Notes under the pieces: generated by a model | Database searches by the model: none | Told to the model about the DNA's origin: nothing | The model's input: only the letters and a program-made list of their open reading frames with translations | DNA from: a virus | Lineage: Duplodnaviria > Caudoviricetes | IMG/VR virus record: IMGVR_UViG_3300032219_002522 | Span: 32,001 to 96,000 of that record | Length of the DNA stretch: 64,000 nucleotides | Reading direction: 5' to 3' (one strand) | Part shown: piece after piece, positions 5,903 through 32,281 of the stretch | Layout of the letters: every line of letters begins with the position of its first letter | Numbering within the stretch: position 1 is the first letter of the stretch | Made by a program: the position numbers and the translations under genes

Positions 5903-7122
5903 ATAAATTAGATTTATCTTATCAATCCCTACTCCAAGATATCTTAGACAATGGAGTTACCAAACAAGACCGTACAGGTACTGGAACAATTAGTGTTTTT
6001 GGTAGACAAATCCGTCATAAAATGAGTGATGGGTTTCCATTACTCACAACCAAGAAGATGGCTTGGAAAACTATGGTAACTGAATTACTATGGTTCCTAC
6101 GCGGTGATACAAACATCAAGTTCCTTGTTGATAACAATTGTCATATTTGGACTGGTGATGCTTATAAAGTTTATGATAAAGACTTTGATCGTGAACATCC
6201 ACCATTCAGTGCACCATATCCACCTCGTCTAACGGTTAAAGAATTCGAAGAGAAAATTATGATTGATGATGAATTCAATAAATGGTATGGAGATCTAGGT
6301 CCAATCTATGGCAAACAATGGAGAAATTGGGGAGGTAAACAGGTGTCAGTAAAAGACGGTAACGTAGTTACAACAGTCAATGATCAAATCTCAAGTCTCA
6401 TCAACGACCTTAAAAACAATCCTGATAGCCGAAGACTAATGGTTAATGCTTGGAATGTTGGTGAGTTGGACCAAATGGTTCTTCCACCATGTCATTATGG
6501 GTTTCAAGTTTATACAAGAGAGTTGAGTGAAAGCGAAAGATTTAAGTGGTACGGAAATAAGATAGGTTCACACATGCACCATGACCATATCGTACAAGAG
6601 ATGAATCAAGAAAATGTACCAACCAGAGCAATTTCTTTAAGTTGGAATCAGAGATCTATAGATACATTCTTAGGTTTACCATTCAACATTGCATCTTATG
6701 GATTGTTATTAGAAATCATTGCTAAAGCAGTGAATATGGTTCCTGATGAATTGATTGGAAACTTGGGTGATACGCATTTGTATTTGAATCATATTGAACA
6801 AGCAAAGGAACAGATTGGCGGGAATTTGACACTAGAGGAAAGAATTGATCATTGGTTTCACACAAACAAACCAAATAGAGATGTTGTTGATCATTTTGAT
6901 ACTTTTGGGGATGCACAAAAAATCATGTATTTGGATAAAGCAAATGTTCCGAGCAGATCAAGGGAGCCATTCACACTACCCGAATTGAAACACATGAAAA
7001 CTGATGAGTTTTATAAATCATTATCCGAAGATCTGTCTTTATTTACTCATTTAGATAATACCGATTTTACAATCGAAAATTATCAATCTCATCCACACAT
7101 TAAAGCACCGTTATCCAATTAA
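5899..7122 (+). CDS. thyA: Thymidylate synthase with insertions
   Basis: DRTGTGT, ELLWFLRG, LGPIYGKQWR, LPPCH, QRSIDTFLGLPFNIASY, GDTHLYLNH. Confidence 0.95.
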   Translation: MNKLDLSYQSLLQDILDNGVTKQDRTGTGTISVFGRQIRHKMSDGFPLLTTKKMAWKTMVTELLWFLRGDTNIKFLVDNNCHIWTGDAYKVYDKDFDREHPPFSAPYPPRLTVKEFEEKIMIDDEFNKWYGDLGPIYGKQWRNWGGKQVSVKDGNVVTTVNDQISSLINDLKNNPDSRRLMVNAWNVGELDQMVLPPCHYGFQVYTRELSESERFKWYGNKIGSHMHHDHIVQEMNQENVPTRAISLSWNQRSIDTFLGLPFNIASYGLLLEIIAKAVNMVPDELIGNLGDTHLYLNHIEQAKEQIGGNLTLEERIDHWFHTNKPNRDVVDHFDTFGDAQKIMYLDKANVPSRSREPFTLPELKHMKTDEFYKSLSEDLSLFTHLDNTDFTIENYQSHPHIKAPLSN

Positions 7123-7127
7123 AAACT

Positions 7128-7451
7128 ATGGAAAGAGACAAATCATGGGATGATCCACAACTATCAGACGGAGATATGGGATACACAGAAACAAAGTTAA
7201 CCTTAGAGGAGATCGACAAAACGAATCATAAGGTTTTATTTGGCGATAGATTACTCGGATACTTTATTATGGATATTGATGGATATTACTATTTTGACTA
7301 TGTCACAGCTCCAAACGGATTATGGACTTCATATTCATTAAGAATGGTTGCGGATCTACTTGAAGAGATTAATAAACCACACGAGGATAAAATCAAAGAA
7401 TACTTTAAAAAAAATGGCACGACTACAGATTCAGTACAAGAACTACCTTAA
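7128..7451 (+). CDS. Hypothetical protein
   Basis: ORF track. Confidence 0.55.
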   Translation: MERDKSWDDPQLSDGDMGYTETKLTLEEIDKTNHKVLFGDRLLGYFIMDIDGYYYFDYVTAPNGLWTSYSLRMVADLLEEINKPHEDKIKEYFKKNGTTTDSVQELP

Positions 7452-13239: not shown

Positions 13240-13818
13240 ATGATAAATTTAAAATATTTCAAAGATCTTTTTGAATCAGAAAATATAAACGGTTCAGGAA
13301 TAACTATAGATGAATTCTGTAATAGAATAGAAATATATCCCCCTATGATACCAGTAATATCTGAATGGTGGAGTAAAAATAGATCCGATATAAAAATACA
13401 CCTTTTTCCTTTTGGATCCATTGAACCTATAGCTGGTGTTTTTTTAGGATCTGATACCGTATGTATAAACCAAAATCTGAGAATGCCCCCTCATATTAAG
13501 TTGTTTTTATCTTTACATGAATCGAGACATTGTGATCAATATAGAGATGGGTCGTTTATAGAAGGATATTATGATACGGTATTAAATAATGATCTGGAAG
13601 GATTTTTGGAAGCATATTCTAGATTAGAAAGAGATGCTAACGATTATGCTATTGGTGCAATGAGAGAAATTGGATTTTCACGAGAGATGAATAGAGAAGA
13701 AAACATGATAAGAGGAAATGAAAGGGCAGGGAATATTGTTTATAGAATGATGCAGAATGATATTGAAAGATTAAATCCTACTGATTTCTTTGACTTATTA
13801 AAAAAACAGATACTTTAG
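13240..13818 (+). CDS. Zincin-like HExxH protein
   Basis: LHESRH ... ERDANDYA. Confidence 0.6.
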   Translation: MINLKYFKDLFESENINGSGITIDEFCNRIEIYPPMIPVISEWWSKNRSDIKIHLFPFGSIEPIAGVFLGSDTVCINQNLRMPPHIKLFLSLHESRHCDQYRDGSFIEGYYDTVLNNDLEGFLEAYSRLERDANDYAIGAMREIGFSREMNREENMIRGNERAGNIVYRMMQNDIERLNPTDFFDLLKKQIL

Positions 13819-15267: not shown

Positions 15268-15314
15268 AACTTTATCTATATTTGTAATATATTAATAAAA
15301 CGTTCTTTAACATA
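15266..15314 (+). promoter_or_regulatory. Promoter(s) and boxA-like element of the Y-RNA/Ro60 operon
   Basis: GAAAC at 15266, TATATTTG at 15277-15284, GTTCTTTAACATA at 15302-15314. Confidence 0.6.
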
Positions 15315-15319
15315 CTTAT

Positions 15320-15539
15320 TTTCTTGAAGCGGTTTAAAGGGTTACTTCAAAAATACAATTCAATAAGCAACAGGATCGGTTCTCAGGTTCCGGTCTAAAT
15401 AAAGGCTAAATACTGTATTAATCTGAAAGCGCCAGAAATGGAACTAAAGGTAGATTCTCGGTTCAATTCACCTGACTAGAAATTCGGGGATGATTACCTC
15501 CCATAAGGAGGAACCACTCTTTAAAGATTTCTCAAGAAA
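15320..15539 (+). ncRNA. Y-RNA-like element 1 (long, with an internal structured domain)
   Basis: 5'/3' pairing TTTCTTGA/TCAAGAAA and TTTAAAGGGT/ACTCTTTAAA; shared YGAAGCGG...ACTTCAAA...TTCTCR motif; upstream of Ro60. Confidence 0.7.
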
Positions 15540-19719: not shown

Positions 19720-20874
19720 ATGGCAAGAATATTATCATTTAGTGATTTTAACGAACTAAGCGAAGGCTATAACTTTAACGGAAGCGATTATGGTTTTAAG
19801 GATCTTTCTAGTTACGTTGAATTATCTGAATCAGAAATGCTTTCTTTATTTGACAACGAAATCTATGAAGCAGCTCCGAAAGGAAACACTGTACAAGGTG
19901 GATTATTTGATGTTAACGATAAGAACGTTTATAATGCAGTTAAAAACGTAAAAACTGCTGTTATCCAAGGTGCTCAATACACTTTCTTAACAATAGGTCA
20001 AGGTATTAAAGCTTATGCTGATGCACAAGTTAAAGCTGCAAAAGCTACCGGACAAGCTTTATTAAATTTAGCAAAATTTACTGGTAAAGTTGTTATATTT
20101 ACTGCTGCTGGACTTTATGTAGTAACTGAAGCAGTTGCTACTGGATTAATTTCTCTAGCAACATCTATATTTGGATATGCAAAAAAAGGAGCTATTGCAA
20201 TTGGTAGTACTCTTGTTACTGCATTAAAAAATGCTAACGATTACTTTAAAAAATTAGGCAAAGCAGTATTTAATACTATTAAAAATGATGCTTTAGCAGT
20301 TGCTAAAGTTTTTATGACAGGTTTATATAAAGTTGCTAATTTAGCTTCTCAAGCTGCTCAAGCAGTTGCATCTCTAACCGTTGCAGCATATAAGATAGCT
20401 AAAACAGCATTTAAATCTATTACTAACTTTGCAGCAGAGTGTATATACGGAGCAGCTAAAGCAGCTAAGACTGTTGCTATTAAAATAGGAAAAGCGGTTG
20501 GTGATTTTTATAATGCTTCTGTAAGTGTATTTAAATCTGCTAAGGATGCTATTGTAAAAACTATAAAAACTGGATTTAACGCAGTAGCAAATACTGTTAA
20601 AGCTGGTGTGCAAAAAACAGTTAAGGTTGCTGCTAAAATAAAAACGGGAGTTGGAAATGCTCTTAAGGCCGCACAGAATAAAATCGTTAATACCGGAAAA
20701 GAAATACTTTCAGTTGGTAGCGCTATATTTAGGGGTCTTTGGGATCACGAGATTTACCAAGGAACTGACGAAGATATTTTTGAATCCTATGTTATTGTTG
20801 AGGGACAAAGATACTACGTGCCAGTTGATTCATACGATGATTACGATCTAGATATTTTCGGATCACAGTATTAA
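19720..20874 (+). CDS. Ala/Lys-rich amphipathic putative internal/ejection protein
   Basis: MARILSFSDFNELSE; long amphipathic helices; strong GCT/GCA, GGT, ACT codon bias. Confidence 0.6.
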   Translation: MARILSFSDFNELSEGYNFNGSDYGFKDLSSYVELSESEMLSLFDNEIYEAAPKGNTVQGGLFDVNDKNVYNAVKNVKTAVIQGAQYTFLTIGQGIKAYADAQVKAAKATGQALLNLAKFTGKVVIFTAAGLYVVTEAVATGLISLATSIFGYAKKGAIAIGSTLVTALKNANDYFKKLGKAVFNTIKNDALAVAKVFMTGLYKVANLASQAAQAVASLTVAAYKIAKTAFKSITNFAAECIYGAAKAAKTVAIKIGKAVGDFYNASVSVFKSAKDAIVKTIKTGFNAVANTVKAGVQKTVKVAAKIKTGVGNALKAAQNKIVNTGKEILSVGSAIFRGLWDHEIYQGTDEDIFESYVIVEGQRYYVPVDSYDDYDLDIFGSQY

Positions 20875-21352
20875 TAGAAACAAAACCTAAAAACATACCT
20901 ATTAAATGACCCCCGTGGGATATTCCATCGGGGTCATTTAGTGTAACGACCTCTCCTATCAATATAATAGCCAAAATTGGTATAAGGAATTTATTTGATA
21001 ATAGTAATCTTGTTAAAAGAAAATACACCAATCCAGATATACCTATAGAAATTTGAACTCCGAAAAAAGTAAGTATAAAAGTAAAGGTCTGAACGACTAT
21101 AGTTATTAATACCATCTGCTTTATATCATATTTGTTACCACTATGAATAAGTAACAAAAATATTGCTATTATATTAAATAGAAAATGATCTAAAGATTGG
21201 TGAATAAATCCACTAATAAATGGTAAGGATATAGCTAAATCAGCATTTCCCCCAAGTATAAGCATCATAATTAATCCTAGCGGGTATGCTAATACGCATA
21301 CTCCTAATACCTTTAATGTTTCTATAGCAGATCTTTTTAAATTTTCTTTCAT
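20792..21352 (-). CDS. Rhomboid-family intramembrane serine protease
   Basis: FIHQSLDHFLFN, GISG (catalytic Ser), SHGGHLIG (catalytic His), multiple TM helices. Confidence 0.8.
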   Translation of the reverse strand: MKENLKRSAIETLKVLGVCVLAYPLGLIMMLILGGNADLAISLPFISGFIHQSLDHFLFNIIAIFLLLIHSGNKYDIKQMVLITIVVQTFTFILTFFGVQISIGISGLVYFLLTRLLLSNKFLIPILAIILIGEVVTLNDPDGISHGGHLIGMFLGFVSINTVIRKYLDRNHRMNQLARSIFVPQQ

Positions 21353-21408
21353 TTTTTTGTTTTGTAATACAATAGTAGAAAACCCAAAGAAATATAAAAA
21401 AAGATTCT

Positions 21409-21474
21409 AAATCATTTTTTATATTAAATAAAAAGGTCTATATTTGTGAAACAAAACAAAAGGAACGATATATA
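21409..21474 (+). promoter_or_regulatory. Dual promoter (host-type TATATTTG and late GATATATA) of tRNA operon 1
   Basis: TATATTTG at 21439-21446 and GATATATA at 21467-21474; same layout at 27121-27156. Confidence 0.65.
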
Positions 21475-21482
21475 ACAGATAT

Positions 21483-21557
21483 ATGAAAAACCTAAACAAC
21501 ATATTACCTTTAATATTAAGACCGTCGATAAGACGATCTCTAAAGGTCCTGTGTTAG
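21483..21557 (+). CDS. Attenuator leader peptide 1, MKNLNNILPLILRPSIRRSLKVLC
   Basis: Codons 7-19 ATA TTA CCT TTA ATA TTA AGA CCG TCG ATA AGA CGA TCT match the downstream tRNAs; the 3' end overlaps the antiterminator strand. Confidence 0.75.
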   Translation: MKNLNNILPLILRPSIRRSLKVLC

Positions 21558-21612
21558 TTTTCAATATATACTAAACTAAAAAACCGGGACCTTTAAAAGC
21601 CCCGGTTTTTTT
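21541..21612 (+). terminator. Attenuator 1: terminator with alternative antiterminator
   Basis: Terminator AAAAAACCGGG...CCCGGTTTTTTT (21578-21612); antiterminator TAAAGGTCCTG (21541-51) pairs with CGGGACCTTTA (21585-95). Confidence 0.8.
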
Positions 21613-21614
21613 AT

Positions 21615-21630
21615 GGTCTTTGAAATATTG
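21615..21630 (+). promoter_or_regulatory. boxA-like element GGTCTTTGAAATATTG
   Basis: Near-identical to 27337-27352 and 15302-15314; resembles rrn boxA. Confidence 0.55.
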
Positions 21631-21642
21631 AATTATTAAATT

Positions 21643-21729
21643 AGAGAGTTGCCAGAGTCAGGCTTAATGGATCAGTCTTGAAAACTGACGTAGTGAAAGC
21701 TACCAGGGGTTCGAATCCCTCACTCTCTG
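21643..21729 (+). tRNA. tRNA-Ser(UGA)
   Basis: Cloverleaf, loop CTTGAAA, long variable arm, G73. Confidence 0.9.
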
Positions 21730-21734
21730 CTCAT

Positions 21735-21806
21735 GGGTCTATAGTTAAAGGGATATAACCCTAGCCTTCTAAGCTTGTATTCCTGGTTCGAGTCCAGGTG
21801 GACCTA
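21735..21806 (+). tRNA. tRNA-Arg(UCU)
   Basis: Loop CTTCTAA, T arm CCTGG-TTCGAGT-CCAGG. Confidence 0.9.
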
Positions 21807-21810
21807 CACA

Positions 21811-21970
21811 AAGCCCTCTGCCTAGCGCTGGGTATGGATCGAAGATAGAATAGGCCTCTACACCGTAGACAGGTAGGATACCTCGGTATTCTTTAATGAT
21901 ATGCACACTTATTCTCTAAATCGTGGGTTAGCACAGTTTGTATGTTCTGGGGATATTTAAAGACATACAA
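21811..21970 (+). ncRNA. Unidentified structured RNA inside tRNA array 1
   Basis: Nested stems AGCCC/GGGTT, AGAATAGG/CTTATTCT, TGCCTA/TGGGTA, TCTAC/GTAGA and AGGATAC-CTCG-GTATTCT, then a TTGTATGT/ACATACAA hairpin. Confidence 0.45.
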
Positions 21971-21973
21971 TTT

Positions 21974-22046
21974 CGGGATGTAGATCAGTTGGTAGATCGC
22001 CTGGTTTGGGGCCAGAAGGCCCTAGGTTCGAGTCCTAGTATTCCGA
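21974..22046 (+). tRNA. tRNA-Pro(UGG)
   Basis: CGGGATG acceptor, loop TTTGGGG. Confidence 0.9.
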
Positions 22047-22053
22047 CAGCCAC

Positions 22054-22127
22054 AGAGGCGTAGCTCAATTGGTTAGAGCACATGCCTTATACGCATGCGG
22101 TCACGAGTTCGACTCTCGTCGTCTCTA
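22054..22127 (+). tRNA. tRNA-Ile(UAU)
   Basis: Clean cloverleaf, CATGC-CTTATAC-GCATG, A73. Confidence 0.85.
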
Positions 22128-22130
22128 CTT

Positions 22131-22204
22131 GGTCCCTTAGCTCAGTAGGTTAGAGCAACTGACTCATAATCAGTAGGTCCACGGTTCGAGCCCGTGAGGG
22201 ACCA
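22131..22204 (+). tRNA. tRNA-Ile2(CAU, lysidine type), less likely Met
   Basis: Loop CTCATAA; GGTCCCTTAGCTCAG body resembles ileX-type tRNAs. Confidence 0.8.
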
Positions 22205-22219
22205 CAAAATTAATAATCT

Positions 22220-22300
22220 GCCTGGGTGGTGAAATTGGTAGACACGTTCGGCTTAAGATCGAATGCGAAATGCGTGAGGGTTCGAGTCCCTCCTCGGGTA
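22220..22300 (+). tRNA. tRNA-Leu(UAA)
   Basis: Loop CTTAAGA, long variable arm, A73. Confidence 0.9.
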
Positions 22301-22305
22301 CATAT

Positions 22306-22408
22306 ATAAGAGTGGCGGAAGCGAGATCATTTATGATCCGATGGAGAGACGCTAGGGTGTCATGCCAGAGAACGAAAATTCATGTTGGTTCAAGTCCAAC
22401 CTCTTGTA
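22306..22408 (+). ncRNA. tRNA-like RNA with Leu-type body, D-loop hairpin insertion and degenerate anticodon arm
   Basis: ATAAGAG/CTCTTGT acceptor, TGGCGGAA...AGACGC D arm, perfect T arm GTTGG-TTCAAGT-CCAAC. Confidence 0.65.
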
Positions 22409-22421
22409 CTTTTTAGATTTT

Positions 22422-22973
22422 TTACTTAACCTCTTTAATTCTGAAGTATCCTCGGTGATCGGTTTTACCTGGTTCTACACCATCTTCGAATTTACAATAT
22501 CCAGTAGAATTAAAGAAGTTCCATTCTTCTCTTCTACCTTTACTAAGTTTATCCTGTGGCATTAAAGATCTATTATATTCTTGATTTTCTTGGTTAATTC
22601 TCTTATACATTCCATTATAAAATGTAGATGTGCTAAGTAAATTCGTAGCTTCTTCCATTAATCTTCGATTGATATTATAGTCAAATATAGCCTCATGAAT
22701 AGAAATCTCTGAAATGTCTCTTCTATAGCTAATCCATTGTGATATAACTCCACCATAATTATATGGTGTATAACCTAAATCCCCTACGTAAAAAAGATTA
22801 AAATATGGAGAATTCTCTTTGCTGTGATCGAACAACCTTATGTTAGTATTAAAATGTGGTACAGTTCCACTGAATTCTTTCATTCTATTATAGAATTCAG
22901 GCAGTATCTCTAATGTTATTGATGTCGGATTATTATTTGCATCAAATCCCTCAAATAGCTTAATGTGTTTCAT
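22422..22973 (-). CDS. Late protein with CTS-like N-terminus
   Basis: MKHIKLFEGF after a minus-strand GATATATA. Confidence 0.6.
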   Translation of the reverse strand: MKHIKLFEGFDANNNPTSITLEILPEFYNRMKEFSGTVPHFNTNIRLFDHSKENSPYFNLFYVGDLGYTPYNYGGVISQWISYRRDISEISIHEAIFDYNINRRLMEEATNLLSTSTFYNGMYKRINQENQEYNRSLMPQDKLSKGRREEWNFFNSTGYCKFEDGVEPGKTDHRGYFRIKEVK

Positions 22974-27079: not shown

Positions 27080-27167
27080 AAAATATCAAAGAAACATTTT
27101 TTTATTCAATAAAAAGATTGTACATTTGTGAAACAATATCAGAAAAGAGATATATAAACAAGAAACA

Positions 27168-27275
27168 ATGAAAAACTGTAGTAAACATAACATCATTCGC
27201 ATGAACAGTCAGATTAATGGCTGCTATCAAACGGTGGCGTTTTGGGCTAAGGGAAAAGATCCCGATCGAAGCTAA
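27168..27275 (+). CDS. Attenuator leader peptide 2, MKNCSKHNIIRMNSQINGCYQTVAFWAKGKDPDRS
   Basis: Contains codons for all 7 downstream tRNAs and no ATA/TTA/AGA/TCN; the last codons form the antiterminator strand. Confidence 0.7.
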   Translation: MKNCSKHNIIRMNSQINGCYQTVAFWAKGKDPDRS

Positions 27276-27336
27276 TACAAGAAATCATATTTAGATATTT
27301 TGAAAAGGCTTTGATTAACTTCAAAGCCTTTTTTTT
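27264..27336 (+). terminator. Attenuator 2: terminator with alternative antiterminator
   Basis: Terminator AAAAGGCTTTGA-TTAACT-TCAAAGCCTTTT plus T tract (27303-27336); GATCGAAGCT (27264-73) pairs with GGCTTTGATT (27307-16). Confidence 0.75.
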
Positions 27337-27352
27337 GTTCTTTGACATATTG
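27337..27352 (+). promoter_or_regulatory. boxA-like element GTTCTTTGACATATTG
   Basis: Shared by all three ncRNA operons. Confidence 0.55.
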
Positions 27353-27358
27353 GAAATT

Positions 27359-27440
27359 GGGAGCGGTAGCAAAGTTGGTCAATGCACCGGACTGAAAATC
27401 CGGCCATGTGGGTTCGAAGGTTCGAGTCCTTCTACTTCCA
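27359..27440 (+). tRNA. tRNA-Phe(GAA), atypical (12-nt variable region, Tyr-like body)
   Basis: CCGGA-CTGAAAA-TCCGG; T arm GAAGG-TTCGAGT-CCTTC. Confidence 0.75.
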
Positions 27441-27445
27441 CAAAA

Positions 27446-27518
27446 GGTCCCGTAGTTCAATGGATTAGAATGGAACACTACGGATGTTCTGATCCTGGTT
27501 CGAATCCAGGCGGGGTCT
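27446..27518 (+). tRNA. tRNA-Arg(ACG)
   Basis: GAACA-CTACGGA-TGTTC. Confidence 0.9.
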
Positions 27519-27529
27519 CAAACAAATAA

Positions 27530-27603
27530 GGTCGCGTGGCCGAGTGGTTAGGCGCTAGTCTGCAAAACTAGTAACACTGGTTCAATTCCAGTCACGACCT
27601 CCA
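27530..27603 (+). tRNA. tRNA-Cys(GCA) with encoded CCA
   Basis: CTAGT-CTGCAAA-ACTAG, U73, CCA. Confidence 0.9.
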
Positions 27604-27624
27604 AAAAATAAAATAATAAAGCCT

Positions 27625-27756
27625 ATGGATGAAAAAGTGGTAGTAAAAGGAAGTTTCCCCTCTAGTAAAGAAAACTTAAAAAGAGAAACATTAAAATTTA
27701 AACACGCCGAAAGATTAATAAAAAGAATTAAAAGGCTAATTAACAAAGGAAAGTAA
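27625..27756 (+). CDS. Small basic ORF inside tRNA array 2 (43 aa)
   Basis: Own translation MDEKVVVKGSFPSSKENLKRETLKFKHAERLIKRIKRLINKGK*; A-rich upstream region. Confidence 0.4.
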   Translation: MDEKVVVKGSFPSSKENLKRETLKFKHAERLIKRIKRLINKGK

Positions 27757-27833
27757 TCTCAGATGGTGACGGGGCTCGCCTGCTAAGCGAAGCGTACCTT
27801 AATTGGTATTTGGTTCGATTCCAATTCTTTCCG
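27748..27833 (+). tRNA. tRNA-Ser(GCU), divergent
   Basis: TCGC-CTGCTAA-GCGA, long variable arm, G73; some stem mismatches. Confidence 0.75.
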
Positions 27834-27839
27834 CAATAT

Positions 27840-27913
27840 TGACATATAGCTCAGTTGGTTAGAGCGTTGATCTGATACGTCAAAGGCCGAAGGTTCGAAT
27901 CCTTCTATGTCAC
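27840..27913 (+). tRNA. tRNA-Ile(GAU)
   Basis: TTGAT-CTGATAC-GTCAA; TGACATA/TATGTCA acceptor. Confidence 0.85.
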
Positions 27914-27918
27914 CCCAC

Positions 27919-27991
27919 GCCTTTGTAGCTCAGCTGGTAGAGCGCTTCACTTGTAATGAAGTTGTCGCAGGTTCGATTCCTGTCAAAGGCT
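27919..27991 (+). tRNA. tRNA-Thr(UGU)
   Basis: CTTCA-CTTGTAA-TGAAG. Confidence 0.9.
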
Positions 27992-27996
27992 CATAT

Positions 27997-28069
27997 TTTC
28001 CCCTCGTCTAATTGGCGGGACATGTGGTTTTGGACCAGAAGAGTCCAGGTTCGAATCCTTGGAGGAAAA
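27997..28069 (+). tRNA. tRNA-Gln(UUG)
   Basis: Loop TTTTGGA, U1-A72 acceptor. Confidence 0.8.
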
Positions 28070-28111
28070 CAAAAAGATAAATACAATGTCCAGTATGTAA
28101 AATTTAAGATT

Positions 28112-28603
28112 ATGAAAGTTCTAGTATTAAATAACGACTTTACGCCAGTGAGTGTTACCAATATAGCTCGGGGATTCAAACTTGTATATAAAGGTAAAGC
28201 CGAAGTATTAGAACATGACGAATCTAATCCTATTGTTACAGATCAACAAGTTTATAAAAGACCATCAGTTATAAGGCTTTTAAAGTATGTTGTTCTTCCA
28301 TTTAAGAAGCTAAAACCCACTAGGGAGAACATATTTAAGAGAGACGAATTAAAGTGCTTATATTGTGATGCTACAAAGCAGCTTACAATAGATCACGTAA
28401 TCCCTAGATCTAGAGGAGGTATTAATACATGGGAGAATCTAGCAACTTGCTGTTCTAGATGCAACGGTAAGAAAGGAGATAGAACTCCAGAAGAAGCAGG
28501 AATGAAGATGCGTCACAAACCATTTAAACCTGGATATGGATATTTTATCCGGAATTTTTCTAAAGGAATGGATGTTTGGACATCATATCTTCCAGAATAT
28601 TAA
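28112..28603 (+). CDS. HNH endonuclease (McrA-like)
   Basis: VLVLN, RENIFKRD..CLYC, TIDHVIPRSRGG.NTWENLATCCSRCN.KK; true start ATG at 28112. Confidence 0.9.
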   Translation: MKVLVLNNDFTPVSVTNIARGFKLVYKGKAEVLEHDESNPIVTDQQVYKRPSVIRLLKYVVLPFKKLKPTRENIFKRDELKCLYCDATKQLTIDHVIPRSRGGINTWENLATCCSRCNGKKGDRTPEEAGMKMRHKPFKPGYGYFIRNFSKGMDVWTSYLPEY

Positions 28604-31978: not shown

Positions 31979-32281
31979 ATGGGTAGAAATATAATAACTA
32001 AGTTATATGAGTTTGTTATGACTCAGCCTTTAACTAAACCTAGGCCAACAACAGTTCCTACAACTCCTACTAGACCTGTAACTCCTCCTGCACCGGCAAG
32101 GCCAGGAAGACCAGTTCCAGACAGAGAGCCTAGACCAGAGGAGACTGAAAGACCGATAGCTAAGGCTTTTGGACAGGCTATGGGAAATATAAAAAGCTCC
32201 CTAGCTCAAGAAAGAGGTACTAAACTAGCAATGGGCATTATAAGTAGGCTAAGAAAGCTTAAAAATTTACCGATGGCATAA
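31979..32281 (+). CDS. Pro/Thr-rich small late protein
   Basis: ORF after the palindromic GATATATATC. Confidence 0.55.
   Translation: MGRNIITKLYEFVMTQPLTKPRPTTVPTTPTRPVTPPAPARPGRPVPDREPRPEETERPIAKAFGQAMGNIKSSLAQERGTKLAMGIISRLRKLKNLPMA

Follow-up and report, generated by a model that had tools for sequence, protein, structure and literature searches.

Predicted leader-peptide attenuators with codons matched to the tRNA arrays behind them in uncultured phages of Bacteroidota-type hosts

The window analysed here is a stretch of 64,000 nucleotides (nt), positions 32,001 to 96,000 of the Caudoviricetes record IMGVR_UViG_3300032219_002522 in IMG/VR, and its subject is a pair of transfer RNA (tRNA) arrays, each preceded by a short open reading frame (ORF) and a predicted terminator. 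The complete record measures 115,839 base pairs (bp) at 32.9% G+C, a size at which the label "jumbo phage" in the initial annotation was wrong, and its tRNA genes are confined to these two arrays, six genes in each. Upstream of array 1 the order is promoter, 24-codon ORF, terminator, boxA-like element and then six tRNA genes (21439-21642 plus the array, in window coordinates as throughout). The unit is bounded 5' by a divergent gene for a rhomboid-family membrane protein (20792-21352, minus strand; Pfam Rhomboid, E 1e-6), and 3' by tRNA-Ser at 21643. The leader elements of array 1 had been placed correctly throughout by the initial annotation, and the parts of the unit are as follows.

21408..21446, plus strand: predicted promoter of array 1, an A/T-rich upstream part and a -7 box TAnnTTTG of Bacteroidota type at 21439-21446
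21447..21482, plus strand: 5' untranslated leader (36 nt), with conserved GAAACAA at 21448-21454 and GATATATA at 21467-21474
21483..21557, plus strand: leader ORF 1, 24 codons, with the putative regulatory codons 7-19 at 21501-21539
21500..21512, plus strand: region 1 (protector strand), within the regulatory codons, pairs with region 2
21541..21560, plus strand: region 2 (5' strand of the antiterminator), spans the last five codons and the stop codon
21573..21595, plus strand: region 3, partner of region 2, overlaps the 5' arm of the terminator
21578..21612, plus strand: predicted intrinsic terminator 1 (helix 3:4), with an A-run, a GC stem (21584-21588 with 21601-21605) and seven T
21615..21632, plus strand: boxA-like element of array 1, core TCTTTGA, between the terminator and the first tRNA
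21643..22301, plus strand: tRNA array 1 (Ser-UGA, Arg-UCU, Pro-UGG, Ile-UAU, Ile2-like CAU, Leu-UAA)
21643-21730, plus strand: tRNA-Ser-UGA
21735-21807, plus strand: tRNA-Arg-UCU
21974-22047, plus strand: tRNA-Pro-UGG
22054-22128, plus strand: tRNA-Ile-UAU
22131-22205, plus strand: tRNA with CAU anticodon (Ile2-like)
22220-22301, plus strand: tRNA-Leu-UAA

The same TAnnTTTG box is present in the host tRNA and ribosomal RNA (rRNA) promoters of two Bacteroidota genomes, and the promoter layout of array 1 is also conserved before array 2 and in relatives. GAAACAA and GATATATA are common to both leaders of the window, to relatives, and to a 374-kilobase (kb) phage described below (G001). As the pair also precedes ordinary protein genes in other viral contigs, it appears to be a general 5' leader signal rather than one specific to tRNA arrays. 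The assignment of the CAU tRNA to Ile2 fits, since its closest E. coli genes are annotated as tRNA-Ile.

The codons of leader ORF 1 match the array that follows it. Codons 7-19 read ATA TTA CCT TTA ATA TTA AGA CCG TCG ATA AGA CGA TCT and, as initially proposed, 12 of the 13 fall within the decoding sets of the array 1 tRNAs, CCT and TCT by wobble at U34; the reading of U by U34 is established for E. coli and Salmonella, and is an assumption for the host of this phage. Codons read by array 1 constitute 20.6% of all codons in the long ORFs of the phage, which gives a match of 12 in 13 a probability of ~6e-8, and none of the 35,629 genomic windows of 13 codons (ORFs of at least 60 amino acids) reaches 12 matches.

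Leader 1 also contains mutually exclusive helices. The 11-bp helix between 21541-21551 and 21585-21595 claimed in the initial annotation does form, with one G-U pair, and so does the inner helix (21553-21560 with 21573-21578). Helix 2:3 (21541-21560 with 21573-21595) has a predicted energy of -19.1 kcal/mol (z -5.0 versus shuffles), and it both outscores and excludes the terminator, helix 3:4 (-13.6 kcal/mol, z -2.6). The duplex of region 2 with the terminator arm scores z -5.3 against 300 shuffles. Helix 1:2, within 21500-21553, is predicted at -13.9 kcal/mol (z -2.8) and is seen in the minimum-free-energy fold of the whole leader. To simulate a ribosome, its footprint was masked codon by codon and the remaining RNA folded to equilibrium. 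In leader 1 the terminator forms with no ribosome or with a ribosome at codons 16 to stop, and the antiterminator forms with a ribosome at codons 3-15, where most cognate codons lie. Folding of the alternative structures, one of the checks suggested at the outset, thus yields a predicted terminator/antiterminator switch in this leader. When ten units, most of them described below, were pooled, cognate codons were enriched at positions where a stalled ribosome would not disturb the antiterminator (odds ratio 3.3, p 2e-4).

The second unit of the window repeats the parts of the first: promoter, 5' leader motifs, ORF start, terminator and post-terminator element.

27121..27167, plus strand: predicted promoter and 5' leader of array 2, with the -7 box at 27121-27128, GAAACAA at 27130-27136 and GATATATA at 27149-27156
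27168..27275, plus strand: leader ORF 2, 35 codons, beginning ATG AAA AAC as leader 1 does
27264..27273, plus strand: antiterminator strand of leader 2, comprising the last codons and the start of the stop codon, pairs with 27307-27316
27302..27336, plus strand: predicted intrinsic terminator 2 (-17.0 kcal/mol, z -5.7)
27337..27355, plus strand: boxA-like element of array 2
27359..28070, plus strand: tRNA array 2 (Phe-GAA, Arg-ACG, Cys-GCA, a Ser-GCU-like element at 27747-27833, Ile-GAU, Thr-UGU, Gln-UUG)

A promoter-proximal motif, TTTGTGAAAC, has only two sites in the 115.8-kb genome, one per tRNA array. The antiterminator helix of leader 2 is predicted at -14.8 kcal/mol (z -3.9), and the corresponding duplex scores z -2.3. 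The two leaders divide isoacceptors between them, leader 1 using ATA, AGA and TCN and leader 2 using ATC/ATT, CGC/CGA and AGT/AGC, and this division follows their own arrays (Fisher p 2e-5 over all array codons). Across the whole phage, 57% of Ile codons are ATA and 77% of Arg codons are AGA. The isoacceptor split argues that the quantity sensed would be tRNA species rather than amino acids. Each tRNA of array 2 has codons in leader 2, as do all 15-16 tRNAs of a fuller array found in relatives. The AGT/AGC codons in leader 2 would be explained by the tRNA-like element at 27747-27833, which has a long variable arm and GCU in its anticodon loop; the element receives no ARAGORN call, lies below the Rfam tRNA threshold, and scores 38 bits on the tRNA-Sec model, below the gathering score. 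At the matching array position in two related loci (L250 and L263), ARAGORN does call a Ser-GCU tRNA, which accounts for the AGY codons.

To extend the comparison beyond the window, loci in IMG/VR were collected by an exact pattern of the promoter and ORF start, and all seven matches sit directly upstream of tRNA arrays. In three of them the type-2 leader precedes a 15-tRNA array and has at least one codon for each of the 15. The window array 2 has 6-7 tRNAs compared with 15-16 in relatives (L001, L006, L243 and L250) and its leader is still full; the matching leaders before the 15-tRNA arrays therefore suggest that array 2 is an eroded version that has kept a full leader, and that its leader is a record of former array content. 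A Glu-Asp-Met-Leu-Met array is preceded by a third leader type (T3), in which codons for Glu, Asp and Leu abound, and the last codons of this leader pair with the terminator arm. Alignments of relatives show no insertions or deletions within the ORFs and variable flanks. Leader 2 has nine variable codons, of which six differ synonymously and stay within the decoding set of one tRNA; its terminator stem covaries between C-G and T-A, and its antiterminator strand is invariant and uses G-U pairs where needed. Changes in the terminator stem of leader 1 likewise preserve pairing. In four loci (L113, L115, L010 and L280) leader 1 has 19 codons, owing to a 1-nt deletion; the regulatory run is kept, the stop codon falls inside region 2, and the nucleotides of region 2 are unchanged. 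The upstream part of leader 1 thus appears to be kept as codons and the downstream part as RNA. The conservation anticipated in the initial annotation is therefore found at both levels, with the ORF kept in frame and the antiterminator segment kept as nucleotides, and the in-frame conservation, together with mostly synonymous drift, suggests that the leader ORFs are translated.

A distant phage of 373,759 bp (IMGVR_UViG_3300035183_000733, here G001) encodes ~49 tRNAs, including suppressors with a CTA anticodon. In seven of its arrays, a promoter is followed by a short ORF and then by a GC-rich terminator, which ends 4-10 nt before the first tRNA. The sequences of the seven leaders are unrelated, and each is rich in precisely the amino acids of its own array:

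G001 leader Tyr/Asn/Gln, before array Asn-Asn-Tyr-Tyr-Gln-Gln-Gln
G001 leader Val/Phe/Pro, before array Phe-Pro-Val-Val
G001 leader His/Trp, before array Trp-His-His
G001 leader Ile/Arg, before array Ile-Arg-Arg
G001 leader Ala/Asp/Cys/Glu, before array Asp-Ala-Cys-Glu-Glu
G001 leader Leu/Ser, before a Ser/Leu array
G001 leader Thr/Lys/Gly/Met, before a Lys/Met/Gly/Thr array

More broadly, the same layout with unrelated leader sequences was found before tRNA arrays at more than 40 IMG/VR loci. A search blind to the leader, in which the pattern comprised only the T-run and the post-terminator element, returned 66 loci; 32 of these are new loci with a tRNA within 120 nt, and they include at least eight further leader families. 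In one such leader, upstream of a Ser-Ser-Thr-Cys array, a long run of Thr/Ser ends in Cys, and another has a run of Gly-Gln-Ser-Trp-Phe-Thr-Ile-Lys-Gly-Gln-Asp before an array of Lys-Trp-Thr-Ile-Phe-Gly-Asp-Gln. Equivalent leader ORFs of 19-37 codons are present in 20 further units. The match of leader codons to their own array was assessed by permutation: for 10 units defined by hand it sums to 4.01 against 1.92 +/- 0.36 when permuted (0/200,000), and for 20 units derived automatically from coordinates to 7.32 against 3.80 +/- 0.44 (z 7.9; 0/300,000), with the own leader ranking first or second for 14 of the 20 arrays. The correspondence of leaders and arrays, which had been proposed as a check on the first unit, thus lies far beyond permutation in this phage, its relatives and the distant G001. 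In every one of 22 units, the terminator 5' arm pairs best with a segment at the 3' end of the ORF; relative to the stop codon this segment falls at about -47 to +15 nt, mostly no more than 30 nt away. This partner scores z < -2 against dinucleotide shuffles in 15 of the 22 units (6/10 and 9/12), and for the 12 new units the pairing gives a Stouffer Z of -10.1.

This comparative evidence supports the core of the initial annotation, a ribosome-mediated attenuator whose leader codons are matched to the anticodons of its own array. The parts and their order, the competing helices, the codon/anticodon correspondence and the recurrence of the arrangement with unrelated sequences can all be read directly from the genomes. 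On these grounds, each array is very probably transcribed from a host-type promoter through a leader-peptide attenuator that slow decoding of cognate codons would open. From the same features we infer translation of the ORF, coupling of transcription and translation in the host, termination, readthrough and the role of the boxA-like element. The nascent leader RNA would be translated, and fast passage through the array-cognate codons would bring the ribosome to the end of the ORF, where it would cover region 2. Terminator 3:4 could then form, and RNA polymerase would halt 20-30 nt before the first tRNA. If a charged cognate tRNA were scarce, slow decoding of any such codon would stall the ribosome over region 1, region 2 would pair with region 3, and with the terminator blocked the polymerase would continue. 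Past this gate it would meet the boxA-like element, probably become resistant to termination, and transcribe the array. The net effect would be a demand-driven negative feedback on tRNA supply at the level of codons, acting as an OR gate over six tRNA species (array 1) or up to sixteen (array 2 type).

Several observations weigh against this interpretation. The match of leader 1 is imperfect, as its CGA codon has no cognate tRNA in array 1, and three leader families (F2, F7 and F11) match their arrays weakly, ranking 5-7 of 20. Array 2 has lost about nine tRNAs and its full leader stays, so that leader and array do not co-vary among close homologues on a short timescale; co-variation sought by eye in close homologues of the Trp/Ile/Phe/Gly family and the type-2 family was not convincing, and arrays erode faster than leaders change. 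The folding results are also uneven. Equilibrium masking reproduces the model cleanly for leader 1 only and partly for four other units, with strong terminators dominating the rest, and the equilibrium folds of leader 2 and T3 do not form the terminator when no ribosome is placed. The GC-rich terminators of G001 win equilibrium folding at any ribosome position, and there the model needs kinetic, co-transcriptional folding; a crude version of such kinetic folding, on truncated transcripts, fits the model better than equilibrium does. Amino-acid starvation would also trigger readthrough, as stalling reports charged tRNA. To our knowledge, coupling of transcription and translation has not been established for Bacteroidota hosts.

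A more specific purpose for these units would be counter-defence. Here the circuit would sense codon-specific slowing caused by anticodon nucleases, other tRNA-depleting defences or shut-off, and induce exactly the replacement tRNAs, with the boxA-like element, after the gate has opened, locking the polymerase in a termination-resistant state. We regard this extension as doubtful, and specific sensing of tRNA depletion by host anticodon nucleases is speculation.

The post-terminator element bears on the first of three alternatives to the attenuator. Its consensus, TCTTTGA[AC]AT, has three matches on the two strands of the genome, one 3' of each terminator and one on the minus strand at 13265. 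A similar motif occurs in the rRNA operons of the two Bacteroidota genomes, within the transcribed leader and 30-45 nt downstream of the -7 box, and the Flavobacteriaceae version extends the likeness to the phage element through ACATATTGAA; this boxA comparison covers two host-type genomes only. We infer that the element is a boxA-type antitermination signal placed after the gate. It could instead be a second, weak promoter -7 box that drives the array, leaving the leader ORF and terminator as a separate unit. The TTTG core common to the element and the Bacteroidota -7 box would fit such a role, as would its position 14-20 nt before the first tRNA, which resembles the distance from -7 box to tRNA in hosts. 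However, the element lacks the TA at positions 1-2 that is present in every host promoter seen here, and its rRNA counterpart lies downstream of a -7 box and inside the transcript, as a boxA would. The gap from the terminator to the first tRNA is too short to hold a promoter (22-30 nt within the window, where it contains no TAnnTTTG box, and 4-10 nt in G001); G001, whose leaders are still codon-matched, lacks both the motif and the space for it. A second promoter would also leave the codon match and the antiterminator complementarity unexplained, and we consider it improbable.

A second alternative keeps the leader and reverses its polarity: efficient translation would suppress the terminator, so that abundant cognate tRNAs raise transcription of the array, as positive feedback or a licensing check. 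The codon match by itself fits either polarity, and a ribosome following closely behind polymerase can suppress an intrinsic terminator located a few bp after a gene (PMC4824070). In all 22 units, however, a spacer of 16-39 nt separates the stop codon from the terminator stem downstream, too great a distance for a ribosome bound at the stop codon to span. Such a ribosome would mask the very strand that competes with the terminator, favouring termination, and the conserved complementarity between the ORF 3' end and the terminator 5' arm would have no role. Reversed polarity is thus highly improbable. Least likely of all, to an extreme degree, is that the ORFs encode functional small proteins or are untranslated, with ordinary terminators or processing signals for hairpins and a codon match either devoid of regulatory meaning or reflecting direct, T-box-like contact with tRNA: the peptides do share a Met-Lys-Asn/Lys start, and their translation is an indirect deduction, but peptides of different units are otherwise unrelated except in their richness in the amino acids of their own array, chance is excluded by the permutations (0/300,000), the C-terminal tail of leader 1 can be lost as peptide and is conserved as RNA, neither a T-box nor any other Rfam family is found at threshold, and the in-frame arrangement with synonymous drift points to decoding by ribosomes. 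None of these three alternatives explains the codon match and the antiterminator geometry together, and we therefore retain the leader-peptide attenuator in what follows.

The arrangement was also sought in host-type genomes and in other phages. A leader ORF or terminator was absent from 14 tRNA arrays of the two Bacteroidota genomes (a Flavobacteriaceae isolate and a Bacteroidaceae metagenome-assembled genome), in which a TAnnTTTG box lies 15-40 nt before the first tRNA, and in four other large phages (169-345 kb), with 34 tRNA units between them, the same detector found no upstream terminator. The unit therefore does not simply reproduce the usual host layout, nor is it shared by phage tRNA arrays in general. 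A database of isolated phages (50,697 records) gave no match to either leader, the tRNA genes alone producing matches. In bacterial genomes the pattern of promoter and 5' leader gave 47 matches, about 20 of them in Bacteroidota and none adjoining a tRNA; these were rejected as attenuator units and represent ordinary promoters or chance. A search with the G001-type 5' leader pattern returned only G001 itself and ordinary protein-gene leaders. The T-box covariance model had no match to these units at its gathering score or at E values up to 1, and Rfam Thr_leader (RF00506) remained below threshold at 21490-21615 (28 bits against a gathering score of 55, E 0.043), a match that is a resemblance of architecture only. 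The initial annotation knew of no leader-peptide attenuation of phage tRNA genes, and a full-text search, with most subscription journals outside it, likewise found none published for tRNA genes of phages or cells. An old suggestion of attenuator-like leaders at pheU and pheV was not used as precedent, as these E. coli tRNA-Phe genes are reported to have leaders of 3-4 nt (PMC7049720).

Several neighbouring features complete the description of these loci. Within array 1, a 166-nt unannotated insert without an Rfam match (21808-21973) separates tRNA-Arg from tRNA-Pro; it is kept in L003 and gone in L047, where the two genes adjoin. A tRNA-like remnant lies 3' of tRNA-Leu (22302-22408), with a good T-arm (stem-loop at ~22384-22400) and no callable cloverleaf, and it is followed by a T-rich stretch and the end of a minus-strand gene (22422-22973). 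Directly 3' of array 2 is an HNH endonuclease gene (28112-28603; Pfam HNH_5, E 5e-17), and endonuclease-like ORFs occur inside the arrays of relatives, as seen in the upstream sequences of L005 and L007; such genes in or near arrays may explain their erosion and rearrangement. In L002 (~6996-7300, on its minus strand) the ATG of the type-1 leader is lost and no canonical start is present in frame, and the array is reduced to Arg-UCU, Ile-UAU, Glu-UUC and a degenerate Ser tRNA, so that this unit looks like one in decay. G001 carries CTA-anticodon (amber suppressor) tRNAs at 19877 and 42187, and one of its leaders ends in TAG followed by TAA; the two tRNAs suggest recoding of TAG.

The post-terminator module also appears away from tRNA arrays. 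At ~15290-15320 of the window, a TAnnTTTG promoter and a boxA-like TCTTTAACAT lie directly before a Y-RNA-like array and a TROVE/Ro60 gene. This looser form of the element, at 15303, suggests a third stable-RNA operon marked in the same way as the two tRNA attenuators. In five IMG/VR loci (L235, L247, L248, L251 and L272) the terminator and boxA-like element are followed by a canonical TAnnTTTG box and an ORF of ~100 amino acids, with a tRNA-Asp or tRNA-Met 0.8-1.4 kb beyond the module, which indicates that the module is sometimes used ahead of protein genes.

Why phages carry tRNA genes, and how those genes are controlled, is an open question. If the proposed mechanism is true, some phages gauge how fast individual codons are decoded and let the result feed back onto tRNA synthesis, by means of a natural multi-input (OR-gate) sensor of tRNA availability, and leader-peptide attenuation would extend from genes for amino-acid synthesis and tRNA synthetases to tRNAs themselves. 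The leader would moreover form a readable list of the purpose of its array, such that comparing the two reveals lost tRNAs, as for array 2. At ~190 nt the units are compact and modular, occur in many uncultured phages of Bacteroidota-type hosts, and are suited to reporter testing and to use as codon-specific sensors of translation speed.

The closest parallels are the multivalent attenuators of enterobacterial amino-acid operons, whose mechanism is well established, namely the ilvGMEDA leader (Ile/Leu/Val) and the thr leader (Thr/Ile), alongside trpL, hisL and pheL (PMC1183508, PMC3082878). Like ilv- and thr-type leaders, the phage units combine a short leader containing regulatory codons, competing helices 2:3 and 3:4, joined in leader 1 by helix 1:2, and a terminator before the regulated genes, and a stalled ribosome, as proposed here, would select the antiterminator, with several amino acids sensed at once. 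They differ in that their products are tRNAs rather than enzymes, that sensing would operate by isoacceptor codon family, and that one leader lists up to 16 tRNA species; they are also phage-borne, have Bacteroidota-type promoters and a boxA-like element downstream, and share no sequence homology with those leaders. T-box riboswitches similarly choose between terminator and antiterminator to report the state of a specific tRNA. They work without a ribosome, however, recognising uncharged tRNA by direct binding that involves a specifier codon and the T-box sequence, whereas the phage units carry a translatable ORF. As in boxA/Nus antitermination of rRNA operons, a boxA-like motif lies in a transcribed leader before untranslated RNA genes. 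Unlike in rRNA operons, the phage element lies 3' of a regulated terminator and, judging from its sequence, would affect only those polymerases that get beyond the attenuator. A final parallel is provided by leaders of aminoacyl-tRNA synthetase genes, of which the E. coli pheST leader is an attenuator. Others precede alaS, thrS and trpS in Streptomyces (PMC8079986). In these systems, as in the phage, attenuation acts on the translation apparatus and responds to the supply of charged tRNA. Synthetase leaders control a protein-coding gene and respond to one amino acid, whereas the phage output is an untranslated operon encoding the sensed tRNAs themselves, and the feedback loop would thus be direct.

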